Below, in pieces: positions 2,243 through 62,982 of a stretch of DNA of 64,000 nt. A program made the translations under genes and the position numbers. The notes below the pieces were generated by a model. That model had not been told where the DNA came from and ran no database searches. It saw only the letters and a list, made by a program, of their open reading frames with translations. Numbering within the stretch: the stretch's first letter is position 1; every line of letters starts with the position of its first letter. Source of the stretch: Candidatus Microgenomates bacterium (lineage in GTDB: Bacteria > Patescibacteriota > JACPGU01); assembly GCA_016188915.1 (NCBI GenBank), contig JACPGU010000001.1, positions 123,106-187,105 on the forward strand, in the 5' to 3' direction.

Positions 2243-2557
2243 TTTATCCTCCTGTAAACAAATTTATTTATTTTTTGTAAAATAATATTTTGCTTTGTGT
2301 AGTAAATTTATGGGCAAAAAAATAATGCCTCACAAAGAAACCTTTGCTATGCCTAAATAGCTACAAGCCATTTTACCTAATATTCAGGAGTAGCGCAAGG
2401 GGGATTTTCGCGCTCACTAATTTTATATGATAGTCTTGCACGACCTGCCAATTTTCGCTTCTCGCGACCCGCCTGCCGGCGAGGCAGGGACAGGAATCGT
2501 AGTTCCGTGAGCGAGAAAGAATATAGGCGGGTAATGTCAAGCTTGTCCTATAATTAT

Positions 2558-2586
2558 TTGACACTAACTAACAATACCCCTATAAT
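2558..2586 (+). promoter_or_regulatory. sigma70-like promoter TTGACA-17bp-TATAAT upstream of the PIN toxin-antitoxin pair
   Basis: TTGACA at 2558-2563, exact 17-nt spacer, TATAAT at 2581-2586, ATG at 2606. Confidence 0.5.
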
Positions 2587-2605
2587 TGCTCTTATAATTT
2601 AATTT

Positions 2606-2827
2606 ATGACAACCAAAAGCATTAATATACAAAAAAACTCTATTTCTCTACCTGATTCTTGGAAAAACACCCGGGCTTTTGTTTCTATTTCCTCCGATTC
2701 TTTAGTACTAAAAAAGATGAAACCTCTAGACCTGACCTCTATCAAAGAAAAAATGAAGGCCGCCGGCAAAAATATTACTCAAAAAGACATCTTTTCTGCC
2801 ACAAAAAAGGCTCGAAAACAAAAATAA
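2606..2827 (+). CDS. putative antitoxin (small protein immediately preceding and abutting PIN toxin gene)
   Basis: 73-aa ORF. Its stop TAA is immediately followed by ATG of the PIN gene at 2828. Gene order antitoxin-toxin is typical of VapBC-like modules. No specific fold recognised. Confidence 0.45.
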   Translation: MTTKSINIQKNSISLPDSWKNTRAFVSISSDSLVLKKMKPLDLTSIKEKMKAAGKNITQKDIFSATKKARKQK

Positions 2828-3244
2828 ATGAATATTGTCTTAGATACCAATATCATCATTTCGGGACTTTTGTGGAAAGGAAACGCAAAAGTTCTTTTTG
2901 ATTTCATTGAAGAAAACGAATTTACTATTTGTTTAACTCCCAAAATACTTGACGAAATAAAACGAGTTTTGGAGTATCCTAGAATAAAAAAACAACTCGA
3001 AAAAGTCTCTCTAGAGATTAATGAAGTACTCTTTTTTCTCTTGCAATATTCTGAAATATATTCTGATATAGAAATTTTTAAAGTAGTAGCCGACGACCCT
3101 TCTGACGATATGTTTGTCAATTGCGCTCTTCTCTGTGGCTCTCAATATATTATCTCTGGCGATCAGCATCTGTTGAAAATAAAAAAGTTTCAAAATGTGG
3201 CTATACTAACGGTAAGAGAATTTTTAGAAAAACAAAACCCATGA
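2828..3244 (+). CDS. PIN-domain protein (VapC-like toxin)
   Basis: N-terminal LDTNIII, central DDPSDD..VNCAL and IISGDQHLL are acidic-residue signatures of PIN nucleases. Confidence 0.75.
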   Translation: MNIVLDTNIIISGLLWKGNAKVLFDFIEENEFTICLTPKILDEIKRVLEYPRIKKQLEKVSLEINEVLFFLLQYSEIYSDIEIFKVVADDPSDDMFVNCALLCGSQYIISGDQHLLKIKKFQNVAILTVREFLEKQNP

Positions 3245-3798
3245 AAACAAAAACCAAATTCTACTTCTACTTATTATTAAATTTTCCAGGTATTGCGACG
3301 CACGAACTGTCGCATGCTATTTTCTGCTGGCTTTCGGGAGTAAAGGTGACGAAAGTCGTCTTCTTTCAATTCAAAAATCCTCCGGGCTTCGTGGAGCACC
3401 ACCAGCCTCGTGGCGTTCTTCAATCATTTTTCATCTCCTTCGGCCCCTTCTTTTTTGGTAGTTTTGTTTCTCTTTCTATGTTCTGGATTGTAAGTTACAT
3501 GTTGAGAAGTTCTTTTTCTTCATACTTAATACCTGATACTCAATACTTAATACTGATGTTTGTCTCTCTCTACCTCGGTCTCTCCGTCTCCCTCAATCTC
3601 TTTCCCAGCGACGAAGATGCGAAGGTCTTGCTCTCCAATGTCAATTATCATGTCTTGCACCGTTTCAATCCCTTCGCCGTTCTGCTCTATCCTTTTGTTT
3701 TACTAATTCGTCTTTTTAATTTTCTCCGTCGCGTCCATTTTGACTGGGCGTATGCGATCTTTCTTTTTTTGCTAACCTGGTATTTCATCAATGAGTAG
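3241..3798 (+). CDS. multi-pass membrane protein with HExxH motif (putative membrane zinc metallopeptidase, DUF3267-like)
   Basis: Starts ATGA overlapping the PIN stop. THELSHAIFCWLSG contains HExxH, followed by several hydrophobic segments. Confidence 0.5.
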   Translation: MKTKTKFYFYLLLNFPGIATHELSHAIFCWLSGVKVTKVVFFQFKNPPGFVEHHQPRGVLQSFFISFGPFFFGSFVSLSMFWIVSYMLRSSFSSYLIPDTQYLILMFVSLYLGLSVSLNLFPSDEDAKVLLSNVNYHVLHRFNPFAVLLYPFVLLIRLFNFLRRVHFDWAYAIFLFLLTWYFINE

Positions 3799-3825
3799 GA
3801 CACGACGTTCGACCTCGTGTCCTAG
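3796..3825. repeat. palindromic repeat family 1, copy 1 (TAGGACACGACGTTCGACCTCGTGTCCTA, one arm mismatch)
   Basis: Near-perfect 29-nt palindrome. Related copies at 10223-10253 and 49105-49151. Confidence 0.7.
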
Positions 3826-3828
3826 TCA

Positions 3829-3857
3829 TTGAGAGATAAGACAGTGTCTGTTATAAT
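3829..3857 (+). promoter_or_regulatory. sigma70-like promoter TTGAGA-17bp-TATAAT for the Cys-rich gene pair
   Basis: TTGAGA 3829-3834, 17-nt spacer, TATAAT 3852-3857. GGAGA RBS at 3885-3889 then GTG 3896. Confidence 0.5.
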
Positions 3858-3895
3858 GGATAACGAATGACAAAAAAACAGAAAGGAGAAGAACG

Positions 3896-4195
3896 GTGGG
3901 CGAACCCAATGAGATCGTTAACAACCTTGTCGATCCTGAATGTAAATCTTGCCAAGGGACTGGCAAATGTCCCGATGATGATTGCGATGGCGGATTTATT
4001 CCCGGTGATATCGATGCGGAATGCGATCTCCCCCTCGAGATGCAACACATGAGCACCCCCGATCCTTGCAGGATATGCTTTGGAACCGGCAAATGTCTTT
4101 GCGTTCTGCTCAAAGAAAGTCCGGAAAGATGGGGGTCCGTGATCTTCGGAGAAGAGCAGTGGGAAAAAATGGAGAAAGAAAAGACTACGCCATGA
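3896..4195 (+). CDS. small cysteine-rich protein with two CxxCxGTGxC motifs (DnaJ zinc-finger-like); GTG start
   Basis: CKSCQGTGKCPDDDC and CRICFGTGKCLC motifs. Good RBS spacing to GTG. Confidence 0.55.
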   Translation: MGEPNEIVNNLVDPECKSCQGTGKCPDDDCDGGFIPGDIDAECDLPLEMQHMSTPDPCRICFGTGKCLCVLLKESPERWGSVIFGEEQWEKMEKEKTTP

Positions 4196-4398
4196 CCGCT
4201 ACAAAACGCTCGAAAGATTCTTATGCCGATCCAACATGCCCAAGATGCCAGGGCGATGGCAAATGCAATAAATGTGGCGGAGCAAAGACTATACGCTACG
4301 GCAGAGATTCATATATCCTCGGCTATGACGATTTTTGCGACAGATGTAATGGTACCGGTTTCTGCTCTTGTCGCCGACCGCCCAATCCCCTTTTCTGA
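4192..4398 (+). CDS. small cysteine-rich protein, paralog of upstream gene (translationally coupled, ATGA overlap)
   Basis: MTATKRSKDSYADPTCPRCQGDGKCNKCGG...FCDRCNGTGFCSC. ATG 4192 overlaps the TGA of the previous gene. Confidence 0.55.
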   Translation: MTATKRSKDSYADPTCPRCQGDGKCNKCGGAKTIRYGRDSYILGYDDFCDRCNGTGFCSCRRPPNPLF

Positions 4399-4446
4399 TT
4401 TTATGACCACGCGAAACATTTTTATCCTCATCGAACACCGCTCAAA

Positions 4447-4476
4447 AAGAGACCCGCAAGGGTCTCTTAATTTTTT
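4447..4476 (+). terminator. rho-independent terminator after Cys-rich gene pair
   Basis: AAGAGACCC-GCAA-GGGTCTCTT hairpin followed by AATTTTTT. Confidence 0.6.
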
Positions 4477-4518
4477 AGCGCGATTGGCAATTTGACCTAG
4501 CGCCCTATTGTCACTTTT

Positions 4519-4629
4519 CTCCTCATCAATCTCCCCCTCACTTTTTTTTAAAAAATTTCAAACACGACCTATAACTCACGGCTTGCCCCGCATCCTTCAT
4601 GGTGCGTGGGTCGTGAGTTATAGGTCATA
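4519..4629. repeat. repeat family 2, copy A
   Basis: Shares the core ctcatcaatctcc ... ttcaaacacgacctataactcacggc plus the spacer with the copy at 6044-6147, and contains a divergent inverted partner arm (tcgtgagttataggtc). Confidence 0.6.
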
Positions 4630-4650
4630 AGCCTAGCTATCAACGAGCCA

Positions 4651-4680
4651 CAACAAAAAGAGGGAGACGAGTCTCCCTCT
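4651..4680 (-). terminator. rho-independent terminator downstream of 412-aa hypothetical gene
   Basis: AGAGGGAGAC-GA-GTCTCCCTCT hairpin. On the minus strand it is followed by TTTTTG. Confidence 0.5.
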
Positions 4681-4701
4681 AGGATCTTTACGGAAAAGAA
4701 A

Positions 4702-5940
4702 TTATTTCTTGATGGCCTTTTTTATGGCCAGAGCCAAAGCGGCATACAGCTCCGCGGGGGTATAGTCACTCGGTGGCTTCAGACCCTGGATAGCCAAATG
4801 TGCTCGCGCAAAATCTTTCAGTTTCCGCGTGTGCTCAGCGATTGCTATCAGAGCCAAGACCTTGTCGTGATTAAACACTATCCTCGCCATTTCCTTGCGC
4901 GCGGCAGAGAGACACCTCTGACTCAGCCGTATCTTTACGATGGACAGCCGGGCGCGATCCACATCGGCAGAGCTTCGATAATCATTGCATTCAAGACAAG
5001 AATGTACGCTCTTTACAAGAGCATCAACCTCTTCTCGAGTGACGCCAGGAACTGTGGCTTCTGCGCAAAGAAGCTCAATGTAGTCAGAACCATACATCCA
5101 GTTGCTTCTAAGCGACTTTTTTAGGTCATCCGCTTTTTTGGTGTAGGAAGCTCCTTTCCCTTCGTCATTCTTCGCCAGATAGGCGGAAGCGATGAATCTG
5201 TAGGCCAAAGTTTTTTGGTAATCATTCGAAATGTTTTCGGCCACTTCTTCCGCCCCCACAAAATCCCCTATTTTGAGCTGCGCTTTCACTAATGAAAATC
5301 GCGCTTTTGCCATAATCCCAGAGTTACGAATGAGGCAAAGGTTCATCAGGGCTTCCTCTATAAACTTCGCATCCCCGCTTTTTTCTGCCATCATTGCTCG
5401 GCATCGCACTCTGCTTGGGGAGGATGCGGAAGTAAGTTTCCCAAGAGCCTTCTCCGCAAGACCGTCATGCCCGTGCTCAAGCAGAGACTCCACAAGAGAG
5501 GCGGCCATCCAACCATCCTGACGGGCCGACTGAACTTCTTCTAGCGCCCGGTCAAAATCCGCCTTCTCGCCTGTGATGGCCGCGATATAGCAAAGCGTCT
5601 CTTCTTGTCGAGACCATTGCATATCTTTCCTTTTCTCGAGCAACAATCGCACTTCAACGATCAATTCTTCCAATCTTGTCTGAAGTGCAATTTGATTATA
5701 GATGTCAAGCAAAATTTGCAGATCCCGATCGAGACCTGAGCCCCCACCACCTTCCTCGAGTAATCGGTTGTAGTCGCGAAGCAAAACCTGCAATGTCTGA
5801 CTGGAATCTGGGTCGGCGACGATTCTTTCGAGTAATTGTCTTAATTGTCCTACCGTTGGCCTTCTTCCCATCACGCACCTCTTGTTAAAGAATTTCCGCC
5901 AGTAGTTTATTGTGGCGAAATAGCACGCCAAGCGCGCCAT
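4702..5940 (-). CDS. hypothetical alpha-helical protein, higher GC than flanks (likely start at 5871)
   Basis: Long ORF rich in Ala/Leu/Arg/Glu. No recognised domain. Flanked on both sides by repeat family 2. Possible paralog at 58809-60134. Confidence 0.45.
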   Translation of the reverse strand: MARLACYFATINYWRKFFNKRCVMGRRPTVGQLRQLLERIVADPDSSQTLQVLLRDYNRLLEEGGGGSGLDRDLQILLDIYNQIALQTRLEELIVEVRLLLEKRKDMQWSRQEETLCYIAAITGEKADFDRALEEVQSARQDGWMAASLVESLLEHGHDGLAEKALGKLTSASSPSRVRCRAMMAEKSGDAKFIEEALMNLCLIRNSGIMAKARFSLVKAQLKIGDFVGAEEVAENISNDYQKTLAYRFIASAYLAKNDEGKGASYTKKADDLKKSLRSNWMYGSDYIELLCAEATVPGVTREEVDALVKSVHSCLECNDYRSSADVDRARLSIVKIRLSQRCLSAARKEMARIVFNHDKVLALIAIAEHTRKLKDFARAHLAIQGLKPPSDYTPAELYAALALAIKKAIKK

Positions 5941-6043
5941 TTCGCCTACGAACCCCAGCAGATACTGTTATTATAGCGCAAATATTTATAAATACCAAAT
6001 TATATTCGTCCATTTCTTCGTCTCCTCCAGTATCGTCACACCC

Positions 6044-6147
6044 TTTCTCATCAATCTCCACCTAATTTCAAATCAAATTCAAACACGACCTATAACTCAC
6101 GGCCCACGCACCATGAAGGATGCAGGGCAAGCCGTGAGTTAGCGTAG
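6044..6147. repeat. repeat family 2, copy B (internal spacer inverted relative to copy A)
   Basis: Same left arm acacgacctataactcacggc. The spacer ccacgcaccatgaaggatgcagggcaa is the reverse complement of the copy A spacer. Confidence 0.6.
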
Positions 6148-6322
6148 TAGCATAACTGATGGTACTAATGATTCTGTTTATGGCGAATGACTGAAGGCAA
6201 TTCAAGAGTAGTTAAAAATAGTTGCCGGAAGACAAATGCTGTTTATGCAAAAAAACAACCCCGAGGCAAAAGCCCCGGGGCGCGAGAAATAGACGAACGA
6301 ATGACGAGGACGGAGGCGAGGA

Positions 6323-7318
6323 CTACACCCCCAGCGGGGTTCTGCTCTTGGCGCTTTCCGCGCTCTTAGTGCTTTTCTTTTTCCCCTCTTCCTTTTTCCT
6401 CCACTCCCTGTAATCCACGACGAAATCCCAATCGGGGTCTTTAAGGAATCTCAACCATCGCTCGGGGGAAATCTCGTTGAGCCACTCTATGGCGGCAAGG
6501 ATGTCGGACTTCGTCGGCCTGTCATCACCCGTACCCGATATCGCGTCTCTCAATTTCTCTAATGCCTTCGCCACAGCCAGCCGGTACCTTTCAAAAAGAA
6601 TCTCCGCCACGCTCTGGCCTGCGTGTCTTTCCGCGAGAAGCAACAGATCCTTGATCCGCTCCGAAAATATGTTACCTAGTGGTCGCAGGGGTTCTCTTAG
6701 GGAACCGTCTTTAACATAAAAGAAGTCGCCTAAAAAAGAGATCCCCTTCTTCCAATTTGCCGCCCTGAAGTGACAAGAGAGCCATTCGGTGGAAGGGTCA
6801 GGGTAATCCGAATACAGCTTCAGAAGGAATTTTTGACTCCTCATCCAGTAAAATTCTGTCATACCTACGATGCCCAGAAAATTACCGAGGGAGTACTCCT
6901 TTACTTCTTTGTTGCCCTCGTCCAAGATGAAAACCTTGCAATTATTCATGGAGGACCCTTGCCTGATATGTCCGAGAATGATTTCTCGCATTCTTTTTTC
7001 AACTACGCCGGATCCTTCATTCCTGCTCCAGTAAGCAATCTTTTTGACGATCAGAATCGCCTTGTGGTGGTAATAGGCAGCATTAAACGCCGCCATCAAA
7101 GAAGCAAGGGATAGGGGGATAGAGGAAGAACTGATTATTGGATGCATATGCTTCCAATAAATCAAATCGCCGAGAAAGAATAATCCGCCAAGCAAACTGA
7201 GAACGGCCCAACAAAGATACCAGAACATCACAACCTCCTTTTGCCTTGCTGTCTTGTCCTTTTTGCCTTTTTTTTCGAGTTGCCTCGAGATCATGCAAAC
7301 CGAACTACAGCCCGACAA
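6323..7318 (-). CDS. hypothetical membrane-anchored protein, higher GC
   Basis: Long ORF with an N-terminal hydrophobic segment. No recognisable motif. Confidence 0.4.
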   Translation of the reverse strand: MSGCSSVCMISRQLEKKGKKDKTARQKEVVMFWYLCWAVLSLLGGLFFLGDLIYWKHMHPIISSSSIPLSLASLMAAFNAAYYHHKAILIVKKIAYWSRNEGSGVVEKRMREIILGHIRQGSSMNNCKVFILDEGNKEVKEYSLGNFLGIVGMTEFYWMRSQKFLLKLYSDYPDPSTEWLSCHFRAANWKKGISFLGDFFYVKDGSLREPLRPLGNIFSERIKDLLLLAERHAGQSVAEILFERYRLAVAKALEKLRDAISGTGDDRPTKSDILAAIEWLNEISPERWLRFLKDPDWDFVVDYREWRKKEEGKKKSTKSAESAKSRTPLGV

Positions 7319-7391
7319 AACACGGTTTTTCTTGAGCAGGGCAACCGCGAAACCATCGTCCTTATTTTAAGGATCGATACCAACTGTTCTA

Positions 7392-7420
7392 ATTATACGC
7401 TCAACAAAGCTAAATGTCAA
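7392..7420 (-). promoter_or_regulatory. sigma70-like promoter (minus strand) TTGACA-17-TATAAT
   Basis: Plus strand tgtcaa at 7415-7420 and attata at 7392-7397 with a 17-nt spacer. Drives the gene starting at 7318. Confidence 0.5.
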
Positions 7421-7424
7421 GAAA

Positions 7425-7455
7425 GTCAAAAAGGGGTGGGTTAGAAACCCGCCCC
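7425..7455 (-). terminator. rho-independent terminator downstream of fusA
   Basis: GGGGTGGGTT-AGAA-ACCCGCCCC hairpin (G-U pairs in RNA) followed on the minus strand by TTTTTG. Confidence 0.6.
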
Positions 7456-7504
7456 TACAATTTCTTAATTTTTTATTTTTTTATTTTTTTATTTTCTCCC
7501 CCCC

Positions 7505-9601
7505 CTACCGTCCCTCCGCCTTCTCTTTTGCCTTAATCCCGATGATAGTTTCCGCCACATTGCGAGGCACTTCGGCATAATGGTCGAATTCCATCGTGGA
7601 AGAACCGCGGCCTTGCGTCATCGAACGCAGATTGGTCGTGTAGCCAAACATTTCACCGAGTGGCACATAAGCATCGATAAATTTAATCGTGCCTCGGTCG
7701 CCGGACTCCAAAATCTGGCCGCGTTTGGCGTTCAAATCGCCCATAATATCGCCCAAGAATTCTTCTGGCGCCAGCACTTCCACTTTCATTACCGGTTCCA
7801 AAATTACCGGATCGGCCTTTTTCACGCCGTCTTGAAAGGCCATACTGGCTGCGATTTTGAAGGCCATTTCAGATGAGTCCACTTCGTGGAAAGAACCGTC
7901 AAAAACCGCCGCTTTCAGATCTATCACTGGATAGCCAGCGATTACTCCCCTGTCCATAGCTTCTTTGATACCTTTTTCAATCGCCGGAACATATTCGCGC
8001 GGAATAGCGCCACCGACGATTTTGTTCTCAAATTCAAAACCTTTGCCTGCTTCCAGAGGCGATAATTCCAACCAACAATGGCCGTATTGGCCACGACCGC
8101 CGGATTGACGGATGAATTTACCCTCGCACTGAACCAATTTGCGAATAGCCTCTTTGTAGGCCACTTGTGGTTTGCCCACATTAGCCTCCACTTTGAATTC
8201 TCTTTTCATACGATCTACAATAATTTCCAAGTGCAATTCGCCCATGCCGGAAATAATCGTTTCTCCAGTCTCTTGATCACCTTTGATGCGAAAGGTTGGA
8301 TCTTCTTCGGCTAGCTTGGAGAGCGCCACGCCCATTTTTTCCTGATCGGCTTTAGTCTTTGGTTCAATCGCTACCGAAATCACTGGCTCGGGAAAAGTGA
8401 TATTTTCCAAAATAACAGGGTTGGTTTCATCGCACAAAGTATCGCCGGTAAAGGTAGATTTTAATCCTACCGCTGCCGCAATCTCACCAGCTGAAACTTC
8501 CGAGACATCTTCCCTCTGCGCGGCGTGGAGTCTGACGATACGGCCTATTCTTTCTCTTTCGCCCTTCGTTGAATTATAAACATAGGAGCCGGCTGTCAAT
8601 TTCCCTGAATAAACGCGGAAAAAGCAAAGCTTACCAACAAAAGGGTCAGAGGCTATCTTGAAAGCTAATGCTGCAAAAGGTTCTTTCTCGGAGGCTAAGC
8701 GTGTCACTTCTTCACCGGTTTTGGGATGGGTGCCTTTCACCGGCGGTTTGTCTAGTGGCGAGGGTAAATAATACATGATGGCGTCTAGCAAAGTTTCTAC
8801 AATGACGCCTCGACCATCGCCACCCATAACGGGGAAAAAATTGCCGGTCAGAGTCGCCTTGCGGATAGCTGAACGCAATTCTTCGGTCGTTAGTTCTTCG
8901 CCGCCCAGATATTTTTCCATCAATTTCTCGTCAAATTCCACCGCTTTCTCAATCAGTTCTGAACGATATTTGGCTACTTGTTCAGCCATTTCCGCCGGTA
9001 CTTCGCTTTCGATTAATTGATGGTCGGTGAATTCTTTGTAGGTATAGGATTTCAGCGCCACCAGATCCACCACACCATTGATGTCTTTTTCGAAACCAAT
9101 CGGCAGTTGAATCGGGTAGGCTTCTTTGCGAAGTCTTTTGCGAATAGAATCCAAAGATTTATAAAAATCGCCACCGGTTTGATTGATTTTGTTGATAAAG
9201 CAAATGCGTGGTACACCATATTTGTCGCCTTGACGCCAGACGGTCTCCGACTGCGGTTCCACGCCCATTTTGCCGTCAAAGATAACGGCCGCGCCATCCA
9301 AAACACGCAAAGATCGCTCTACCTCAACGGTAAAGTCAACGTGCCCCGGCGTGTCAATAATATTGAAACGATGGTCTTTCCAAAAACAAGTGGTCGCCGC
9401 CGAAGTAATCGTGATACCTCGCTCGCGCTCTTGCTCCATCCAGTCCATAGTCGCCTCGCCTTCGTGTACCGCGCCGATTTTGTGCTTTTTCCCGGTACGG
9501 TAAAGAATGCCTTCGGTCACCGTCGTCTTACCAGCGTCGATATGGGCAATGGTGCCGAAATTGCGAACATGGTCGAGGGGATATTTTGTCTCTTCTGTCA
9601 T
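7505..9601 (-). CDS. fusA: elongation factor G
   Basis: [22 protein letters not shown]-like motifs. Full-length EF-G similarity. Ends with TAG. Confidence 0.97.
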
Positions 9602-9794
9602 TGTGCGTTTTTCTAATAATCTAGTGCTATTTAAAAGTTATAATTTTTGAATTTTGTAATTTTTGAATTTTTAAACAATTTCTAATGTTCTAATTTTTAA
9701 AAAATTAAAAATTGTAAAAATTAAAAATTGGCGTTCAGGACGAAGCCTTGCCTATTATACGCAGAATAGATACTGGAAGCAAGAAAATTTTTTA

Positions 9795-9823
9795 TTGCTA
9801 TTGTTTTGCCAAAGATTTATAAT
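9795..9823 (+). promoter_or_regulatory. sigma70-like promoter TTGCTA-17-TATAAT for third Cys-rich gene
   Basis: TTGCTA 9795-9800, 17-nt spacer, TATAAT 9818-9823. RBS AGAGAGG at about 9872. Confidence 0.5.
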
Positions 9824-9890
9824 AATGGCAACTTCAAGAACCTGAAGGCTGGGTTTTTGGAGAAATTTAAAAAGAGAGGCGGTGGAAAAG

Positions 9891-10148
9891 ATGTGCAAGT
9901 CGGCTGAAGAAATGCAGGGAGCACAGAGAGCCATGGATATTCCGAGGAAAAGGCCTCCCGAAGGGGAAGCTCATATAACGTTCACTCCCTATGTGAAGGG
10001 TTCTGGTTGCGACATCTGTTATGGCACCGGCGCCTGCATGGCCTGTCATGATAATGGCGGAGAATGTTCTTCCTGTCATGGGACTAGGCTCTGTATCGCC
10101 TGCGAAGGAAAGAAAGGAGAGGAGAAAGAATCCAAAGGAGTGTCATGA
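9891..10148 (+). CDS. small cysteine-rich protein, third member of CxxCxGTGxC family
   Basis: GCDICYGTGACMACHDNGGEC and CSSCHGTRLCIAC. An alternative GTG start at 9882 is possible. Confidence 0.55.
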   Translation: MCKSAEEMQGAQRAMDIPRKRPPEGEAHITFTPYVKGSGCDICYGTGACMACHDNGGECSSCHGTRLCIACEGKKGEEKESKGVS

Positions 10149-10176
10149 CCGCCATTCCCACACACTACCAAAAGTA

Positions 10177-10220
10177 AAAAGACCCGTTCGCCGGTTTCGC
10201 CGACAACGGGTCTTTTCTGT
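10177..10220 (+). terminator. rho-independent terminator after third Cys-rich gene
   Basis: AGACCCGTT...AACGGGTCT stem followed by TTTTCTGTT. Confidence 0.55.
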
Positions 10221-10222
10221 TA

Positions 10223-10253
10223 CTAGGACACGACGTTCGACGTCGTGTCCTAG
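10223..10253. repeat. palindromic repeat family 1, copy 2 (perfect 31-nt palindrome CTAGGACACGACGTTCGACGTCGTGTCCTAG)
   Basis: Perfect palindrome seen directly. Confidence 0.7.
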
Positions 10254-10256
10254 TAG

Positions 10257-10300
10257 TACAAAAAAAATACCGCGCGGTTGCTCGCGCGGTGAATATTTTT
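10257..10300. terminator. bidirectional hairpin terminator (ACCGCGCG-GTTGCT-CGCGCGGT flanked by A-run and T-run)
   Basis: 8-bp GC stem with an A8 run upstream and a T9 run downstream. Lies downstream of the lipoprotein gene on the minus strand. Confidence 0.55.
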
Positions 10301-10313
10301 TTTGCTTGATGCC

Positions 10314-11432
10314 TTACTCGGAGGAGAGCTTCCTCTCCCAGTAAAGCCTTCCCGGGAATTCCTCGGTGGTTGGCTCCTGGTAGTCGGTCGCCTCCCACTC
10401 CAAGGACTCGGGGAGAATATTGATATTTATGCAAAATTCTCCCCCTTCCACATCGATTGGGTTCACGAGCCGGAAGTAGTCCCAGCTCGAATCGATGGCC
10501 TCCGGCTTCGTTTGAAGCTTGAAGCATTCCCGATACTGGCCGGCAGGAATCCCCTCCGCCGAGAGGGAAAAGCTAACGCTTCCTGTGTCGCCCGGCAAAA
10601 TCCTATAGCCGGTAGCATCAGAAACCACCGTCCTGTCGTACCAGGACGAAGAGTCAAAAAACTGACTCCCGGTAGCGTTAACCGTCACCATATACACGCG
10701 GTTCTTCCTGTTGGACAGGTTGTACCACGGCATATTCCCCGTATTCTTCACCCGAACTTCGGGGAAAAAATACGGCCAACTCCCGCCACGCTGCCCGGAC
10801 ACCAAGGTCACCGAGATTTCCTGATCGGTCACAGCGGCGTACTTCGGCTCGGTGCCTTCCGGCAGGACACCGATTTCTAATTCGGCCGTGGGAATCCAGA
10901 AGCTGTCCTTGCTCAAAACGGACAGGTCTTCGACAGTGGCGCGAACAGTGATGGTTTTGGTGCTTCCCTGCGCCACAGCCGGAAGAATAACCGCCATCGT
11001 CGCCACACCCCAATCGTTGGTCGTGACGATTTCGGTCGCGCCCAATTGAATTGAGCCGTCGTAAACTCGAAACGTCACCGGAGCCTTGAGCCGCGAGTAA
11101 TCGCAACCCTCTCTGCAGCTCCCGTGGATTTTTGCTCCAGTCGTCATTTCTTCTCCAGCCATGCCCACCTGATAGCTGTAATCCAGATAGGTGTCATCGG
11201 AAACCGCCCCCGAGCTTGCCGCCGAAATCCAGGAAACCACATCGCCTTCAGCGATGATGATGTTGCCCGGATTCTCCGGAATGGGTGGCTCCATGCCTTC
11301 GTCCAGGGTGGGCGGAACGGGCACAACCGGTGTCCCTCCCCCGCCTCCGCAACCGGATAGAAGAAGAATCGCAATCAGGAGCAAGAAAATGCCTCCCACC
11401 ACCGCCAACCCCACCTTTTTCATCTTTTTCAA
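10314..11432 (-). CDS. putative secreted lipoprotein, higher GC
   Basis: N-terminal MKKMKKVGLAVVGGIFLLLIAILLLSGC (signal peptide plus lipobox-like LSGC) then a Gly/Pro-rich linker. No known domain. Confidence 0.55.
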   Translation of the reverse strand: MKKMKKVGLAVVGGIFLLLIAILLLSGCGGGGGTPVVPVPPTLDEGMEPPIPENPGNIIIAEGDVVSWISAASSGAVSDDTYLDYSYQVGMAGEEMTTGAKIHGSCREGCDYSRLKAPVTFRVYDGSIQLGATEIVTTNDWGVATMAVILPAVAQGSTKTITVRATVEDLSVLSKDSFWIPTAELEIGVLPEGTEPKYAAVTDQEISVTLVSGQRGGSWPYFFPEVRVKNTGNMPWYNLSNRKNRVYMVTVNATGSQFFDSSSWYDRTVVSDATGYRILPGDTGSVSFSLSAEGIPAGQYRECFKLQTKPEAIDSSWDYFRLVNPIDVEGGEFCININILPESLEWEATDYQEPTTEEFPGRLYWERKLSSE

Positions 11433-11518
11433 AGCTACTTCCTCCTTTTCTGGCCCCGTAGGGCTGATTTTTTAGCACATTTTTAAGGATCAAACTGCAC
11501 CCTTTATGCTTATCTACC

Positions 11519-11547
11519 ATTATAGCATAGTTTATGAAAAAAGTCAA
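11519..11547 (-). promoter_or_regulatory. sigma70-like promoter (minus) TTGACT-17-TATAAT for lipoprotein gene
   Basis: Plus strand agtcaa at 11542-11547 and attata at 11519-11524, 17-nt spacer. Confidence 0.5.
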
Positions 11548-11571
11548 GGTTTTTACGCGTATATCCACACA

Positions 11572-11610
11572 TATCAATAAAAATCAGCCGTTAAGCTGAT
11601 TTTTATCTTT
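11572..11610 (-). terminator. hairpin terminator downstream of rpsG (also has T-run on plus strand)
   Basis: AAATCAGC-CGTTAA-GCTGATTT with T-rich flanks on both strands. Confidence 0.45.
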
Positions 11611-11647
11611 CGTACAATTTGTCTAAAAATTCGTAAAATTTGTCTTC

Positions 11648-12124: not shown

Positions 12125-12216
12125 GGCTAAAAAATTAATAAAATAAAAAAGTAAAAAATTAAGAATTCTGCAATTATTATTTTCTTAATTTCTTATTTTC
12201 TTAATTTCTTAATTCC

Positions 12217-12630
12217 TTATTTCCGCTTTGCTCCATACCTAGAACGACCTTGCTGTCTTTTTTCTACCCCTCCAGCATCCAACATGCCACGCACAATATG
12301 ATATCTAACCCCCGGTAGGTCTTTTACTCTGCCACCACGGATAACCACTACTGAGTGTTCTTGAAGATTGTGCCCGATCCCCGGGATGTAGGCTGTCACT
12401 TCCATACCATTAGTCAATCTGACACGAGCGATTTTACGCAAAGCGGAGTTTGGCTTTTTCGGTGTCATCGTCGTCACCTTGGTGCAAACACCGCGCTTAA
12501 AAGGCGAACCTTTTTTACTCTCCGTAGTGCGACCTTTGATGGAATTAAAACCCAAAAGCAAAGCTGGCGCCTTGCTTTTTTTTGCGGCGCTCTTTCTCCC
12601 CTTGCGAATTAATTGATTAATGGTAGGCAC
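12217..12630 (-). CDS. rpsL: 30S ribosomal protein S12
   Basis: [11 protein letters not shown]...[10 protein letters not shown]...[14 protein letters not shown] typical of S12. Confidence 0.95.
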
Positions 12631-26020: not shown

Positions 26021-26042
26021 AGAAAATCTGCTAAAACTAAAT

Positions 26043-26082
26043 AACTACTCTTTTCTATGCTATAGCTTTGAAAAGAGTAGTT
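26043..26082. repeat. palindromic repeat family 3, copy 1 (AACTACTCTTTT...AAAAGAGTAGTT)
   Basis: 12-bp perfect arms. Second copy at 28976-29019. Confidence 0.6.
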
Positions 26083-26133
26083 ATTATTTCAAGAATATTG
26101 CGTATTGCTTAGAGATCTGCGATACCATTGGCT

Positions 26134-47240: not shown

Positions 47241-48206
47241 TTAGATTTCAGATTTTAGATTTATGAATCCACCGATAATCTCTTCTGTTTCTTTATAGTC
47301 TTTCGCCTCCATCAGTTTCTTCCGCAGATCGCTTGCTCCGGGAAAATCCGCGCAATAAATCTTGAAAAACTTTTTCATCTTGGCGAATTTCACCCCTTTG
47401 CCCCAAAATTTTTCAAATAATTTCGCATGCTCAATTGCGAGCTTTAATTTTTTAATTTTTTGGTTTTTTACTTTCTTATTTTCAAAAATCCAAGGATTTT
47501 TGAATATCCCTCTCCCAATCATCACGCCATCACAACCGGTTTTTTCGGCCAAAGCCTTCCCTTCTTCAATTGAGCCGACATCGCCATTGCCGATGATCAA
47601 AACTCCCGAACCCTTGGCGATTTCCACCGCGTCTTTTATCCTCTCCCAACGCGCCGGCACCTTGGACATTTCTTTTCTTGTTCGCGCGTGAATAATGATG
47701 GCTTCTGGTTTTTCGGCGAGGAGTTCGGGCAGCCATTCTTCCAAAATATCGGTATTAAATCCCAGCCGTGTCTTGATAGACAAAGGAAGATTCGGCGCGC
47801 CGGCTTTGGCCGCCCTTATTATCTCGCGCGCCAATTGCGGATTTTTCATCAGCGCCGCGCCCGCGCCTTGTTTTTCTATTGTTTTGTCCGGACAACCCAT
47901 ATTGATATCCAGCCCGTCAAAGCCGAGCTTTGCCACCAAACGCGCCGCCTCTTCCATTTTTTCTGGATTGGCCGTAAAAAGCTGGGCGATAATTGGTCTT
48001 TCCTGTTCTGTAAATCGCAAATTTTTCAAAAGCTTTTTTCGACCCACCGAGCACAGCCCATTGGCCGAAACGAATTCGGTATAGAGCACATCCGGCTTGC
48101 CGAAACGCACCACCATTTGCCGAAAAACCGGATCAGTCACATCCGCCATCGGAGCCAAGACGAAAAAAGGCTTCGGTAATTTGTGCCAAAAAGATTTATT
48201 TGCCAT
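47241..48206 (-). CDS. tRNA-dihydrouridine synthase
   Basis: FVLAPMADVTDPVFR, LDINMGCP, Dus TIM-barrel signature. Confidence 0.85.
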   Translation of the reverse strand: MANKSFWHKLPKPFFVLAPMADVTDPVFRQMVVRFGKPDVLYTEFVSANGLCSVGRKKLLKNLRFTEQERPIIAQLFTANPEKMEEAARLVAKLGFDGLDINMGCPDKTIEKQGAGAALMKNPQLAREIIRAAKAGAPNLPLSIKTRLGFNTDILEEWLPELLAEKPEAIIIHARTRKEMSKVPARWERIKDAVEIAKGSGVLIIGNGDVGSIEEGKALAEKTGCDGVMIGRGIFKNPWIFENKKVKNQKIKKLKLAIEHAKLFEKFWGKGVKFAKMKKFFKIYCADFPGASDLRKKLMEAKDYKETEEIIGGFINLKSEI

Positions 48207-49016: not shown

Positions 49017-49104
49017 ACTCCCTCTCCCTCCGAAAAAAAAGATTGAGGGCGCGCCCTCTGCGCGTATTATAACCAAATCACCGAGCAAAAATCAAGCCGA
49101 AATG

Positions 49105-49151
49105 CTAGGACACGACGTTCGACGTCGTGTCCCCAATTCGACGTCGTGTCC
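49105..49151. repeat. palindromic repeat family 1, copy 3 (with partial tandem duplication of one arm)
   Basis: CTAGGACACGACGTTCGACGTCGTGTCC followed by CCAATTCGACGTCGTGTCCCC. Confidence 0.7.
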
Positions 49152-49168
49152 CCAAATTTTTCTTAAGT

Positions 49169-49204
49169 AAAAACCCGACCGTCAAATCACGGCCGGGTTT
49201 TTTG
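49169..49204 (-). terminator. hairpin terminator flanked by A-run and T-run (bidirectional)
   Basis: CCCGACCG-TCAAATCA-CGGCCGGG then TTTTTT. Confidence 0.45.
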
Positions 49205-49226: not shown

Positions 49227-50099
49227 TCATTTCCCTAGATTTTTCTGAAAAATTATTAGCGCTTCTTCTAATGCCCATTCAGGATTTTCAGAAGAAAAAT
49301 TCTCAAAATTTAAATCTCGGCGAAACCGATCGGACAAGGCCGCCAGCCCCGCCAAAATTGTCAATTGCTGAGCAGGATTGTCCATATTGTGACCACCGAA
49401 CTGGTAACCCTCATTCTTGGTGACATGGCCATTCATGGGGTTAATGCCACAGGCGTCTCCCGGACAACTGACATTGAGCCAGCCCGTGTCATAATCAATA
49501 GAGGCGCGGAAGTTATATTTCTCAAACTTGCTTAGCGGTCCATACATTCTCCGATGAGCCCGAATCATCGCCTCTACCATTTCCGGACGAGAGGTCTGAG
49601 CCGGAAAAGAACTAAGATATCGTCCCAGACTTAGACTGAAATCGCCACTTATGGATCCTCCGTGCATATCTTTCAAAGTGGCGAAATCGATCGTCATGAT
49701 TTGTGGCTCCTTGGATGAGGTATTCTCCTTCGGATGAAAGGCCCAGAAGCCAAAGAAGCATAGACTGGCCGAAATGGCAAAGGCTTCTTGGTAGTCACAC
49801 CAAAAATCGTATCCACCTCCTTCGCAACAGGGGCATCTTCCTTCGTGATACGGATGCTTTTTGCTCCCTCCGCAGAACCGACACTTTTCTTCCGTTCGTT
49901 TTTTCACCCTCGGAATAAGAGCGGAAAGCACGATGAAATCTTTTGGTTGCCTTTTTACCGGAACAAAAGCGCCATCAAAGCCAAAACCTTGGCTAAAGTC
50001 AGAACAAAATGCCTGAAAGCCAAATTTTTTTTTGAAATCTGCGATGATAGGCGCTTGAGGCGCACTCTTTTGCCGTCCCAAGAAAAACGGTACCAGCAC
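49227..50099 (-). CDS. hypothetical Cys-containing protein, higher GC; 5' region overlaps an alternative frame (possible frameshift)
   Basis: CRFCGGSKKHPYHEGRCPCCEGGGY cluster, no known domain. Overlapping ORF 49955-50245 in another frame across an A9 run. Confidence 0.35.
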   Translation of the reverse strand: MLVPFFLGRQKSAPQAPIIADFKKKFGFQAFCSDFSQGFGFDGAFVPVKRQPKDFIVLSALIPRVKKRTEEKCRFCGGSKKHPYHEGRCPCCEGGGYDFWCDYQEAFAISASLCFFGFWAFHPKENTSSKEPQIMTIDFATLKDMHGGSISGDFSLSLGRYLSSFPAQTSRPEMVEAMIRAHRRMYGPLSKFEKYNFRASIDYDTGWLNVSCPGDACGINPMNGHVTKNEGYQFGGHNMDNPAQQLTILAGLAALSDRFRRDLNFENFSSENPEWALEEALIIFQKNLGK

Positions 50100-50257: not shown

Positions 50258-52498
50258 TTAGCCTCTTTTTTTAATCCGCAAACTATTGACTACCACCGAC
50301 ACGGAAGAAAAGGCCATGGCTCCCGCCGCAATCATCGGACTCAAGAGCCCTACCGCCGCCAGTGGAATAGCCGCCGCATTGTAGGCAAAGGCCCAGAAAA
50401 GATTTTGCTGTATAACACGAAAAGTTTTTTGCGAAAGAGCAATCGCTTCTACCACCTTCATCGGACTGCCTTTGACAATCACGATGTTGCCCGCTTCAAT
50501 GGCGATGTCCGTTCCCGTTCCCATGGCGATGCCGAAATCTGATTGCGCCAAAGCCGGCGCGTCGTTGATACCATCGCCGATAAAAGCGATTTTCTTCCCC
50601 TCCTCCTGCAATTTTTTGACAATAGCCGCTTTTTCCTGTGGCAGAACTTCGGCAAAAATCTGATCTATTTTAAGTTCTCGGCCGATAGCTTCGGCGGTTT
50701 TTTGATTGTCGCCGGTAATCATTATTGCCGCGATATTTTTATTTTTTAATTGTCTGATCGCTTCTACCGCGTCCGGCTTTACCGTGTCGGCGATAGCGAC
50801 AAGACCCAAAATCTCTTTTTCTCTGACAATCATCACCACTGTCTTGGCTTCAGCTTGGAGTTTCCGCAAAAAAGTTTCATCCTTCAATTTTACGCCCAAT
50901 TCTTCCGCCATTTTCTCGTTGCCTACCGCCACCTGTTTCCCGCCAATAAATCCTTTAACTCCCTTGCCGGCCACATTTTCAAATTTTTCCACTTCCAGCA
51001 ATTTCACTCCGTCTTTCTCCGCCCTCTCCACGATCGCTCGCGCCAGAGGATGGTCAGAATTTTTGTCGAGCGAGGCGGCTACTGTCAGCACACCCCGAGG
51101 AGACACCTCGGGGCTCCCCGAGGTGTCTCCTCGGGGGATAACAACGATATCCGTTACCACCGGCTTCCCCTCCGTCAGGGTCCCGGTTTTGTCAAAAATC
51201 ACCGCGTCAATTTTTTTGCCTTTTTCTAAAGACTCGCCGTTTTTGATGAGGATTCCTTTTTTCGCTCCCAGCCCTGTCCCGACCATGATGGCCGTAGGCG
51301 TAGCCAGACCGAGCGCGCAAGGACAAGCGATGACCAAGACCGCCACGGCTGGCACGAAAGCGGAAGCGATGTCACCTGTCGCCCAATACCAAATGCCAAA
51401 AGTAATAATAGCAATCAAGAAAACCACCGGCACAAAGATAGAAGAGATCTTGTCCGCCAATTTTTGAATCGGCGCTTTTTGCGTCTGCGCGTCAGAGACC
51501 ATTTGGACGATTTGGGAGAGGACAGTTTCAGCCCCCACCTTGGTCGCTTTCATAATAATCACGCCGTTGATATTGATGGTGGCGGCAAAAACTCCATCGA
51601 AGATATTTTTTTCTACCGGCATACTCTCGCCGGTCAGCATAGATTCATCAATAGTCGTCTCTCCTTTTGTAATTTCTCCGTCAGTCGGGATTTTTTCACC
51701 CGGCAAAACACGCAGGGTGTCTCCTACTTGCACTTGTTCAATCGGAATCTCTTTTTCTTGGTCACCTTCTACTAGTCGCGCGGTCTTGGCGCCCAATTTC
51801 AGCAATTTCTCAATCGCCTCACTCGCTTGTCCGCGACTTTTGGCTTCAAAATAGCGCCCTAGTAAAATCAGCGCCGTAATCACCGCGCCGATTTCAAAAT
51901 ACAGGTCCTTTCCTCCGGAAGACAATTCCCAAAAGCTAAAGATCAGAGCCGCCAAAGTACCGACAGAAATCAGCGTATTCATATCGGCGGAAAAATAGCG
52001 TAATTGTTTGGCCGCGCCACGGTGAAATTCCCAACCGATGACAAGAATGACGACGGTGGACAATACTGCTTCAATAATCATGCTGGCGTTGAAACCAAAA
52101 TACTCCCAGGGCAATTCTATTTTGCCCATGGCTATAATCAGTGGCGGTAAGGCTAGAATAAGCGCGATAATTGCCCTGTTTCTGGCTTTCAAAGTTTCAG
52201 CCGATCCCGAAGGATGGTGATGGGAGTGGTCCGCCTTATGAGACGAAGCATGCCTGCCCGCCGAAATGGAGGGCTTCGTCTCTACATGATCCATTACGGC
52301 TTTGTAGCCAACCTTTGCTACTGCCTGATGGAGATCGTGTTCGGAAGCCAGATTTTCGTCAAATTCTACCGTGGCGCTCCGCAACGCCAGATTGACCGAA
52401 GCGGATTTGACGCCCGGCACTTTTTGTAGCGCTTTTTCGTTTTTTAGAACACAGCTGGCGCAATGCAAACCCTCAATGGCAAAAGTTGTTTTTTTCAT
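50258..52498 (-). CDS. copA: copper-translocating P-type ATPase
   Basis: N-terminal HMA (GLHCASC), CPC in TM6, DKTGTLT, GDGINDAP. Carries an in-frame 44-nt palindromic insertion. Confidence 0.92.
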   Translation of the reverse strand: MKKTTFAIEGLHCASCVLKNEKALQKVPGVKSASVNLALRSATVEFDENLASEHDLHQAVAKVGYKAVMDHVETKPSISAGRHASSHKADHSHHHPSGSAETLKARNRAIIALILALPPLIIAMGKIELPWEYFGFNASMIIEAVLSTVVILVIGWEFHRGAAKQLRYFSADMNTLISVGTLAALIFSFWELSSGGKDLYFEIGAVITALILLGRYFEAKSRGQASEAIEKLLKLGAKTARLVEGDQEKEIPIEQVQVGDTLRVLPGEKIPTDGEITKGETTIDESMLTGESMPVEKNIFDGVFAATININGVIIMKATKVGAETVLSQIVQMVSDAQTQKAPIQKLADKISSIFVPVVFLIAIITFGIWYWATGDIASAFVPAVAVLVIACPCALGLATPTAIMVGTGLGAKKGILIKNGESLEKGKKIDAVIFDKTGTLTEGKPVVTDIVVIPRGDTSGSPEVSPRGVLTVAASLDKNSDHPLARAIVERAEKDGVKLLEVEKFENVAGKGVKGFIGGKQVAVGNEKMAEELGVKLKDETFLRKLQAEAKTVVMIVREKEILGLVAIADTVKPDAVEAIRQLKNKNIAAIMITGDNQKTAEAIGRELKIDQIFAEVLPQEKAAIVKKLQEEGKKIAFIGDGINDAPALAQSDFGIAMGTGTDIAIEAGNIVIVKGSPMKVVEAIALSQKTFRVIQQNLFWAFAYNAAAIPLAAVGLLSPMIAAGAMAFSSVSVVVNSLRIKKRG
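51093..51136. repeat. 44-nt perfect palindrome inside copA coding sequence (CCCCGAGGAGACACCTCGGGG-CT-CCCCGAGGTGTCTCCTCGGGG)
   Basis: Seen directly. Encodes PRGDTSGSPEVSPRG between DKTGTLTEGKP and the N-domain. Confidence 0.8.
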
Positions 52499-54256: not shown

Positions 54257-54655
54257 TTAGAAAAGTTTGGGGTTCAAAATACCGGCGGAAAAAAGTTGTG
54301 GCCAAAGATAGAGCGACCGGAGGAAAATTCGCCGTTGCCGATAAAATTTTTTAGAAAAGAAGCGCGCTTCGTATGAAATAACTTCAACTAAGTAAAGTGA
54401 GACTATCAACAAAAGAGCCAAAGAAAAATAATTCATCACGCCGGCAAATCTTGTCTGCCAATCGGTGATTTGCTGGACAACATTCAAAGGACAAAAAAGA
54501 TTGGGGCCGTGGCTCATTGAAACGCACTGGGATGCTTGTTCCGCGTGGCTGTTAGCAAAACTGAAATTAATGCCAAAAATAGCTACGACGAGATAAAGCG
54601 AAGTGAAACTGATAGTCAAAACACGCAAAATATTTTTGGTCAAAACAAATGTCAT
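54257..54655 (-). CDS. small hypothetical membrane protein adjacent to copper cluster
   Basis: Three hydrophobic segments. HAEQASQCVSMSHGPNLFCP segment. Confidence 0.3.
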   Translation of the reverse strand: MTFVLTKNILRVLTISFTSLYLVVAIFGINFSFANSHAEQASQCVSMSHGPNLFCPLNVVQQITDWQTRFAGVMNYFSLALLLIVSLYLVEVISYEARFFSKKFYRQRRIFLRSLYLWPQLFSAGILNPKLF

Positions 54656-57971: not shown

Positions 57972-58802
57972 ATGTTCTGCTATTTCAACGACAAAATAGT
58001 GCCTCTGGAAGAAATCAAAATCTCACCCTATGATTTAGGCTTTTTGCGCGGTTTTGGTGTTTTTGATTTCCTCCGCACCTATGGCGGGAAACCATTTCGA
58101 TTGGCTGACCATATCAAAAGATTTCGAGCCAGCGCCAATATCACCAAACTCCCCGTCCCCTATTCCGATGGGAAAATAATGGAGCTGACCGAAGAATTAT
58201 TGGAAAAAAACGGCCGACCGGAGTGCTGTATCAGAATCATGCTCTCGGGTGGTGTAGAACCAAAACTTACCGCGCCGACTTTTCTGATTTTAATTGAACC
58301 CCTCCATACTTTTCCATCCGAATGTTATACGAAAGGTATCAAGGTCGCGACTATTAACGAGCATCGACTTTATCCGACAGCCAAAACGACCTGCTATTTG
58401 CCGGCATTGAAAGCCCAACAAGAATTAAAAAATGAAAATCCTTTTGAAGTTATCTACGCGCCCGACGGCAATGTCTTGGAGGCCTCCACCGCCAACATTT
58501 TCATTGTCAAAAATGGAAAGCTCATCACGCCAAAAGATGGTATTCTGCTTGGTATCACCCGACAGGTGGTGCTAGAGCTATCTGTAGAGACGAAGCATGC
58601 TTCGTCTCTACAGGCGACAGAGTCCGTAATCGTCCTTCAAGAATTATATACCGCCAATGAATGTTTCCTGACCGCCAGCAACAAAGAAATAATGCCGGTA
58701 ACCGAAATAGACGGCCGAAAAATCGGTGATGGGCAAGTGGGCAAAATAACGAAAGAAGTGATGAAACGATTTACCGAATATACAGGCGTTGCTATAGTTT
58801 GA
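57972..58802 (+). CDS. class IV PLP-dependent aminotransferase (branched-chain/D-amino-acid aminotransferase family)
   Basis: Fold-type IV sequence character (FLRGFGVFDFLRTYGGKPF..., conserved Lys region, E..ANIF). Confidence 0.8.
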   Translation: MFCYFNDKIVPLEEIKISPYDLGFLRGFGVFDFLRTYGGKPFRLADHIKRFRASANITKLPVPYSDGKIMELTEELLEKNGRPECCIRIMLSGGVEPKLTAPTFLILIEPLHTFPSECYTKGIKVATINEHRLYPTAKTTCYLPALKAQQELKNENPFEVIYAPDGNVLEASTANIFIVKNGKLITPKDGILLGITRQVVLELSVETKHASSLQATESVIVLQELYTANECFLTASNKEIMPVTEIDGRKIGDGQVGKITKEVMKRFTEYTGVAIV

Positions 58803-60246: not shown

Positions 60247-60289
60247 GAACACGACCTATAACTCACGGCCGTGAGTTATAGGTCGTGTT
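60247..60289. repeat. repeat family 2, copy C (40-nt perfect palindrome ACACGACCTATAACTCACGGCCGTGAGTTATAGGTCGTGT)
   Basis: Seen directly. Same arm sequence as copies A and B, but with no spacer. Confidence 0.7.
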
Positions 60290-62826: not shown

Positions 62827-62982
62827 CTACAACGCTGGCCACTTCGTATGCCAATCGGTCGCGTTCTGGAAAGCCATGCCGGCGGAGATTAATTTTTCCT
62901 CGCCGAAACGAGGGCCGAGTATTTGGAGCCCGACAGGCAGAGGGGTAGTTGGTAGTTGGTAGTTGGAGAAGATTTGGAAGCG
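62827..62982 (-). pseudogene. remnant of a reverse-transcriptase 3' end (no start codon), homologous to the C-terminus of the RT at 63684-64000
   Basis: Translates to ...LQILGPRFGEEKLISAGMAFQNATDWHTKWPAL* versus the RT ...SGLLGHGNAKKLEKLISIGIAFQNATDWHTKPPLLS*. Bounded upstream by an in-frame TGA. Confidence 0.4.

Follow-up and report, generated by a model that had tools for sequence, protein, structure and literature searches.

A 64,000-nt stretch of the genome of a Candidatus Microgenomates bacterium (assembly GCA_016188915.1, contig JACPGU010000001.1, positions 123,106-187,105), referred to here as the window, carries three near-identical hairpin palindromes in non-coding DNA. We call them family 1; the consensus is CTAGGACACGACGT-TCG-ACGTCGTGTCCTAG. 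The host belongs to the candidate phyla radiation (CPR, Patescibacteria) and is an uncultured groundwater bacterium, whose nearest relatives also come from groundwater. Three proteins encoded in the window, EF-G, dTMP kinase (tmk) and a hypothetical protein, are 100% identical to NCBI proteins of Candidatus Microgenomates bacterium. An initial annotation of the window had noted the family and likened it to repetitive extragenic palindromes (REPs) or miniature transposable elements with inverted repeats (MITEs). The family itself is confirmed, with a hairpin palindrome at all three places. As for its nature, we favor at about even odds (a probability of roughly 0.5) a young, lineage-specific REP/MITE-like hairpin repeat that would have inserted into intergenic DNA.

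Sequence and folding of family 1

The three copies, and a partial duplicate of the third, are as follows.

3796-3824, no strand assigned: copy 1, TAGGACACGACGTTCGACCTCGTGTCCTA, with one mismatch in the right arm; its first three bases (3796-3798, TAG) are the stop codon of the peptidase-like gene 3241-3798.
10221-10255 (core 10224-10252), no strand assigned: copy 2, TACTAGGACACGACGT-TCG-ACGTCGTGTCCTAGTA, whose 16-bp stem is perfect and whose loop is 3 nt; two convergent genes have their terminators on either side of it.
49106-49134, no strand assigned: copy 3, with left arm, loop and right arm intact and the right outer TAG replaced by CCAA.
49137-49155, no strand assigned: tandem duplicate at copy 3, a second run of its loop, right arm and CCAA; 49118-49136 has the same unit, TTCGACGTCGTGTCCCCAA.

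The copies match the consensus at 29/29, 28/29 and 27/29 positions and are 93-100% identical to one another. The hairpins are 29-35 nt long, with a stem of 11-16 bp and a loop of 3 nt. In copy 1 a G to C change at 3814 breaks one stem pair, and with the flanks AATGA/TCATT the hairpin reaches from 3790 to 3830. The best of the three, copy 2, had been described as a perfect palindrome. Its 16-bp stem is indeed perfect, yet the central TCG is asymmetric, so that it is not a palindrome in the strict sense. The core is bordered on both sides by TA, usually as CTAG, in copies 1 and 2, while TA is missing to the right of copy 3. All three loops read TTCGA on the + strand; chance alone would give the same loop orientation in all three copies with p = 0.25.

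The predicted folding energy of the palindromes alone as DNA is -13 to -18 kcal/mol, and that of the palindrome-bearing stretches as RNA, neighboring hairpins included, is -28 to -71 kcal/mol. The z-scores of hairpin stability (DNA and RNA) range from -3.4 to -9.1. Dinucleotide-preserving shuffles of the sequence yielded 0 matches to the palindrome, and none is expected by chance. Independent Logan assemblies of the runs SRR12113420 and SRR12113422 reproduce the window sequence at 100% identity over each of the three copies (contigs L037, L095 and L033/L034), which excludes an assembly artefact. Chance coincidence or artefact is consequently a negligible explanation; the small copy number, and nothing else, speaks for it. 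A search of the window at up to 8 mismatches found no further or decayed copies, and no family 1 copy lies in the 2.8 kb past the right window edge that Logan contig L036 covers.

Chromosomal setting and comparison with a groundwater relative

The closest other lineage available is a population from Hainich groundwater, represented by GCA_964355795.1 (L029) and ERZ1292617 (L032, L035). Its EF-G is 93% identical to that of the host at the protein level, and the genes flanking the palindromes are 74-83% identical at the DNA level. About 24 kb of the relative match the three loci and contain neither a full site nor a half site, so that all three orthologous sites (3/3) are empty and the presence of the palindrome differs between the two related genomes. 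At the copy 1 site, the peptidase-like gene of the relative stops with TAA and is followed by the promoter TTGGAA-17-TACAAT and a Cys-rich gene, without a hairpin. At the copy 2 site, a Cys-rich gene has one bidirectional terminator behind it, beyond which lies a different neighbor gene. At the copy 3 site, 2 nt separate a terminator from the conserved -35 hexamer of tmk, with thyX upstream instead of the CxxC protein. The palindromes are therefore not part of a longer region that the relative conserves, the alternative that the initial annotation had named.

The near-identity of the copies, in surroundings that have diverged by about 20%, points to a common origin after the lineage split, or else to three losses in the relative. 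Recent spread after the split is the simpler of these two readings. The presence or absence of the palindrome at three unrelated junctions would be consistent with transposition in trans. According to this model, a unit of about 25-31 nt (core GGACACGACGT-TCG-ACGTCGTGTCC with TA or CTAG flanks) would recently have inserted into permissive intergenic spots, past the ends of genes and next to terminators or promoters, and the enzyme that mobilizes it in trans would be encoded at another place in the genome. The likeliest movers would be an HUH/Y1-type transposase, of the kind that acts on single-stranded hairpins in the case of REPs, and a DDE transposase that targets TA. The GC skew is negative across the whole window, indicating a single replichore in which the + strand is the lagging strand, and a common + strand loop orientation on one replichore is what replication-strand-dependent insertion of single-strand hairpins would be expected to give. 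Copies 1 and 3 have opposite loop orientations relative to the neighboring transcripts, and this speaks against a specific role as RNA or operator. The elements would not require a host function, although side effects are possible. Copy 1 now provides the stop codon of the upstream gene and adjoins the -35 hexamer of the next promoter, and read-through transcripts would carry a stable hairpin. Other dispersed palindrome families are present in this genome (see below), suggesting that palindrome spread is a general process there.

The elements adjoining the three copies are the following.

3829-3857, + strand: promoter-like site of the Cys-rich open reading frames (ORFs), TTGAGA-17-TATAAT (11/12), starting 5 nt past copy 1 and conserved in the palindrome-free relative.
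10177-10216, + strand: terminator hairpin of the Cys-rich gene 9891-10148, directly left of copy 2.
10259-10304, - strand: bidirectional terminator hairpin, directly right of copy 2, that serves the 372-aa accessory gene 10314-11432.
49169-49202, - strand: terminator hairpin that serves the CxxC-protein gene, whose stop codon is at 49227; on the minus strand it lies just upstream of copy 3.
49066-49095, - strand: tmk promoter-like site, TTGATT-18-TATAAT, 10 nt beyond copy 3 and conserved in the palindrome-free relative (L035).

All copies had been described as intergenic and next to terminators. They do lie in non-coding DNA, except that copy 1 takes in a stop codon, and terminators do adjoin copies 2 and 3, while copy 1 abuts a promoter -35 hexamer. 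Copy 1 follows the end of the upstream gene at 0 nt, copies 2 and 3 at about 75 nt. The RNA fold at copy 2 consists of three consecutive hairpins. A gene with a CxxCxGxG-type motif adjoins each of the copies (3/3), not two of them as first reported; the chance of such adjacency is ~0.001 by a rough post-hoc estimate. This link to Cys-rich cassettes holds as a positional one only. The relative has Cys-rich genes at both comparable positions (copies 1 and 2) and no palindrome there, so the palindrome does not belong to the Cys-rich genes. Palindromes and Cys-rich genes may both simply mark insertion-tolerant accessory regions.

The G+C content of the window is 44%. Its minus strand reads rpoB-rpoC-rpsL-rpsG, an insert, fusA, a second insert, tuf and S10. 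The two inserts contain a PIN toxin-antitoxin pair, a zincin-like peptidase gene, small Cys-rich ORFs and orphan genes. These accessory genes break up the normally compact rpsG-fusA-tuf operon at 2243-7504 and 9602-11647, and they differ among the host, the 93% relative and an 85% relative. The rpsG-fusA-tuf region looks like a gene-exchange hot spot in the clade. Each family 1 copy (3/3) is placed at one edge of a segment with gene content unlike that of the closest available relative, which bears out the earlier suggestion that copies mark boundaries of variable regions. The variable segments are 3.8-7.5 kb, where the relative has an RRM gene and the window has genes of 412 aa and 331 aa; the 372-aa gene; and the 320-aa CxxC gene, in place of which the relative has thyX. 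The 372-aa gene is a near-orphan, with two homologues at 36% identity among 5.8 billion proteins. At 50063-50064 the window is without 52 nt that both Logan assemblies of the same population contain. This gap splits the gene of the 320-aa CxxC-motif protein into ORFs of 96 aa and 290 aa, and it is either a population variant or an error in the metagenome-assembled genome.

Distribution, known repeat classes and rival explanations

Family 1 was searched for with the pattern GGACACGACG-N5-C(N)TCGTGTCC, which accepts any loop and, in the metagenome and viral scans, also the copy 1 mismatch. One genome per GTDB species, the JGI metagenomes and IMG/VR were scanned; the source genome itself lies outside these collections. 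No other family 1 copy was found in them, and the matches were lone hairpins in unrelated genomes, nearly all of high GC, with other loops and flanks. Family 1 appears lineage-specific, being unseen outside the host genome in the scanned collections. A looser viral scan with CTAGGACAC-N(3-21)-GTGTCCTAG gave 19 matches, which represent two or three orthologous hairpin loci of low-GC phages with non-palindromic loops and were set aside as a different element. Rfam 15 has no match at the palindromes (one tRNA is its sole match in the window), and literature searches returned no paper on REP- or MITE-like repeats in CPR bacteria.

REPs have an unpaired GTAG or CGTC end tag and a stem of usually 6-9 bp, and are often arranged as inverted dimers (PMC3733652); those with GTAG or CGTC tags are moved by the Y1 transposases RAYT/TnpA-REP (PMC3733652, PMC2817692). 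Family 1 is likewise a 20-40-nt palindromic unit with a short loop. All three copies are extragenic and downstream of ORFs, between co-directional or convergent genes, with copy 1 overlapping a stop codon. Species-specific families, presumed selfish spread and possible side effects of an RNA hairpin are further points of likeness, and one of the six family 1 ends (copy 1, left) reads GTAG. The ends are, however, base-paired CTAG rather than an unpaired tag, and CGTC occurs within the stem, adjacent to the loop. At 11-16 bp the stem is longer, and it is perfect. The copies are singletons without inverted dimers or bacterial interspersed mosaic elements (copy 3 has a tandem partial arm only), three are known in 64 kb, and Pfam detects no RAYT among the 46 larger ORFs of the window. 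The interpretation first proposed is thus supported in part: the hairpins are dispersed, near-identical and in non-coding DNA, without the REP tag and without dimers.

MITEs are about 50-500 bp long and derive from an insertion sequence with matching ends. Similar to MITEs such as the Stowaway-like (IS630-derived, with TA duplication), Correia and RPE elements, family 1 has inverted ends (11 nt), TA on both flanks in two of the three copies, presence or absence between related genomes and no coding capacity. In contrast to them, it is 25-31 nt long with a 3-nt centre and essentially no internal sequence, which is below the length of a MITE; its TA flanks are perhaps part of the palindrome, and the window holds no parent insertion sequence. 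Family 1 thus acts like a REP or a very small MITE but falls under neither definition. With the dif/pdif sites of XerC-XerD and with integron attC sites it shares inverted arms (11-14 bp) and a position at the boundary between conserved and variable genes, two copies being 3' of an accessory gene. Unlike these sites, its arms are perfect and its spacer is 3-5 nt. It also lacks the R'/L' structure, the extrahelical bases and the GTTRRRY of attC, and, unlike attC cassettes, the genes beside it have their own promoters and terminators, with no integrase or Xer gene nearby (Pfam, window). A scan for intrinsic terminators called none of the three copies; a T-run follows copy 3 on the strand antisense to both neighbor genes, and none follows copies 1 and 2. 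Integron attC, a dif-like site, parS/matS and an intrinsic terminator were rejected on structure. The target hairpin of a diversity-generating retroelement was also rejected, as the sequences beside the three copies share the palindrome alone.

The main rival to a mobile repeat is a site of site-specific recombination or a cassette junction, at which a recombinase from elsewhere would recognize the inverted 11-14-bp arms and accessory genes would be exchanged alongside. We regard this as unlikely but keep it in view because the copies sit at edges of variable segments, which a selfish model does not predict. Copies 2 and 3 have the same minus-strand layout of accessory gene, terminator, palindrome and conserved flank, the 372-aa gene is nearly without homologues, and a second palindrome family brackets another accessory gene (4702-5940). 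Copy 1 falls outside the gene-terminator-palindrome layout, though, and the opposite edge of every variable segment has neither a copy nor a half site, in a comparison that covers one relative lineage. The 3-5 nt between the perfect arms also fit poorly with known tyrosine-recombinase core sites, which have an asymmetric spacer of 6-8 nt, and Pfam shows no recombinase in the window.

Readings as a selected RNA element or as an operator are weaker than this rival. A hairpin selected in transcripts, acting as a 3'-end stabilizer, back-up terminator or insulator as proposed for some REPs, would explain why all copies follow a gene end, why the predicted RNA folds are very stable and why copy 1 is the sole hairpin between the toxin-antitoxin/peptidase operon and the next promoter. 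It is doubtful, since no U-tract follows copies 1 and 2, canonical terminators already serve the genes ahead of copies 2 and 3, the single stem mismatch of copy 1 is uncompensated, and the relative handles the same junctions without a hairpin; one exact sequence at unrelated junctions would be left unexplained. Even less probable is an operator or nucleoid-protein site, where a dimeric protein would bind the inverted repeat to regulate promoters or organize the chromosome. The dyad symmetry fits such a site, as do the CxxCxGxG-motif genes beside all three copies and the -35 hexamers that begin 5 nt and 10 nt past the ends of copies 1 and 3. These two spacings are unequal, however, copy 2 lies between convergent terminators with no promoter near, and the relative keeps the same promoters without the palindrome. 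Typical operator half-sites are shorter than these perfect arms of 11-16 bp, and to our knowledge family 1 has no resemblance to parS, matS or the Noc binding site, which also counts against an operator.

Several points weigh against a REP/MITE-like repeat as well. The Pfam search of the 46 larger ORFs detected no transposase or recombinase at all, Y1_Tnp included, so that the REP-associated tyrosine transposase or other recombinase envisaged in the initial annotation is not found among them. The known copies are only three, in the 64-kb window and the 2.8 kb beyond its right edge. TA and CTAG are self-complementary, which makes a target duplication indistinguishable from part of the palindrome. 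The unit of 25-31 nt is shorter than accepted MITEs and is without the unpaired GTAG/CGTC tag of REPs. A random selfish inserter would not be predicted to place 3/3 copies both at a variable-segment edge and beside a CxxCxGxG gene. Finally, the intergenic DNA of the relative is too diverged to give exact insertion boundaries, so that loss in the relative is possible.

Other palindromes and repeats

A different palindrome of 28 nt, centred on CATG, is found within genes of both the window and the relative.

55129-55156: GTAGAGAC-N4-CATG-N4-GTCTCTAC, in frame inside gatB.
58584-58611: GTAGAGAC-N4-CATG-N4-GTCTCTAC, in frame inside the gene of a class IV aminotransferase.
L035 1227-1254 and 2568-2595 (relative): 28-nt palindromes, in frame at two different places in the copper ATPase gene.

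The in-gene copies of the window and the relative (4/4 in frame) always read V-E-T-x-H-x-x-S-L, and alignment to solved structures places the gatB and aminotransferase copies in variable loops. The IMG/VR scan returned 41 instances in 38 stretches (L038-L075) with a G+C content of 36-64% and no conserved flanks; many of these contigs are from Mu-like phages, and some instances are inside long ORFs. In 31 of the 41 the inner 4 nt, though variable, are complementary. Seven matches have one and the same variant, marked by a G-T mismatch, in at least six different flanking contexts, a sign that all 28 nt are copied together. In the INPHARED records of cultured phages BLAST found no match to the GTAGAGAC palindrome, and a literature search by the GTAGAGAC sequence gave nothing relevant.

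The 28-nt palindromes and family 1 are alike in size, in being perfect xTAG-headed palindromes, in having no conserved flanks and in copies that differ between close relatives; in one of the relative's copies the arm, TAGAGACACGAC, is similar to that of family 1, TAG-GACACGACG. They are unlike in the outer arm and in the even CATG centre, and the 28-nt palindromes are found in genes and widely in phage contigs, whereas family 1 is intergenic and seen in one genome. Kinship between them is possible and rests on about 11 nt. In a broader and quite tentative proposal, family 1 could belong, as one lineage-specific branch, to a class of mobile elements that is so far undescribed and occurs in CPR bacteria and uncultivated phages. 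Such elements would be perfect xTAG-headed palindromes of about 28-31 nt that insert between genes and in frame within genes, with GTAGAGAC-N4-CATG-N4-GTCTCTAC as the widespread form, and in this genome they would favor junctions of swapped accessory genes.

The second palindrome family, with AAACACGACCTATAACTCACGGCC arms, is located at 4560-4625, 6081-6141 and 60248-60289. Two of its copies have a 27-nt loop, which is inverted in one with respect to the other; their left flanks form a direct repeat of about 90 nt, and the accessory gene 4702-5940 lies between them. The third copy is a palindrome of 21+21 nt and is perfect. This family was not found in the relative or in IMG/VR. A perfect GC-rich palindrome of 44 nt, CCCCGAGGAGACACCTCGGGG-CT-CCCCGAGGTGTCTCCTCGGGG, lies at 51093-51136, in frame in the copper ATPase gene just past the DKTGT motif. 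Its translation is PRGDTSGSPEVSPRG, and the orthologue of the relative is 8 residues shorter in this region. At 28975-29020 there is a perfect AT-rich palindrome of 46 nt (23+23 nt, no loop), with a related copy (82%) 2.9 kb away at 26039-26088; both are intergenic.

The remaining observations concern other parts of the window. AT-rich tracts with an 8-nt period (TTTCTTAA-like) are located upstream of several genes (7449-7510, 12128-12238, 33127-33204 and 47436-47497), and Logan contigs break near two of them. A 56-nt unit forms three tandem repeats at 30263-30430. The tRNA gene at 33649-33723 (Rfam, 55.8 bits) is assigned a four-base anticodon, CCTA, by ARAGORN; its anticodon loop can be read as 8 nt (CUCCUAGA) with CUA, which would suit decoding of UAG or UAGG, and a class I release factor gene (33993-35075) lies about 270 nt downstream. 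The right window edge reaches into a diversity-generating retroelement, with the C-terminal end of its reverse transcriptase gene at 63684-63998, and Logan contig L036 shows bAvd and RVT_1 beside a MazEF pair just past the window. Repeats of 58 nt (86% identical) at 62842-62899 and 63702-63759, and also at 54451-54482, may be template/variable repeats or gene fragments. A 193-aa protein encoded at 28338-28919 contains the Cas2-like central domain of PaaX and has a weak CRISPR_Cas2 match, with no CRISPR array apparent nearby.

With three copies and no enzyme known, family 1 is of modest interest by itself. If it is indeed a young mobile repeat, selfish palindromic elements would be active in the reduced genomes of CPR bacteria, and family 1 would offer a strain-level marker between close groundwater populations as well as a pointer to a mobilizing enzyme. 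If the link to variable-segment edges holds across the whole genome, it would be relevant to the exchange of accessory genes within otherwise conserved operons, rpsG-fusA-tuf for example.

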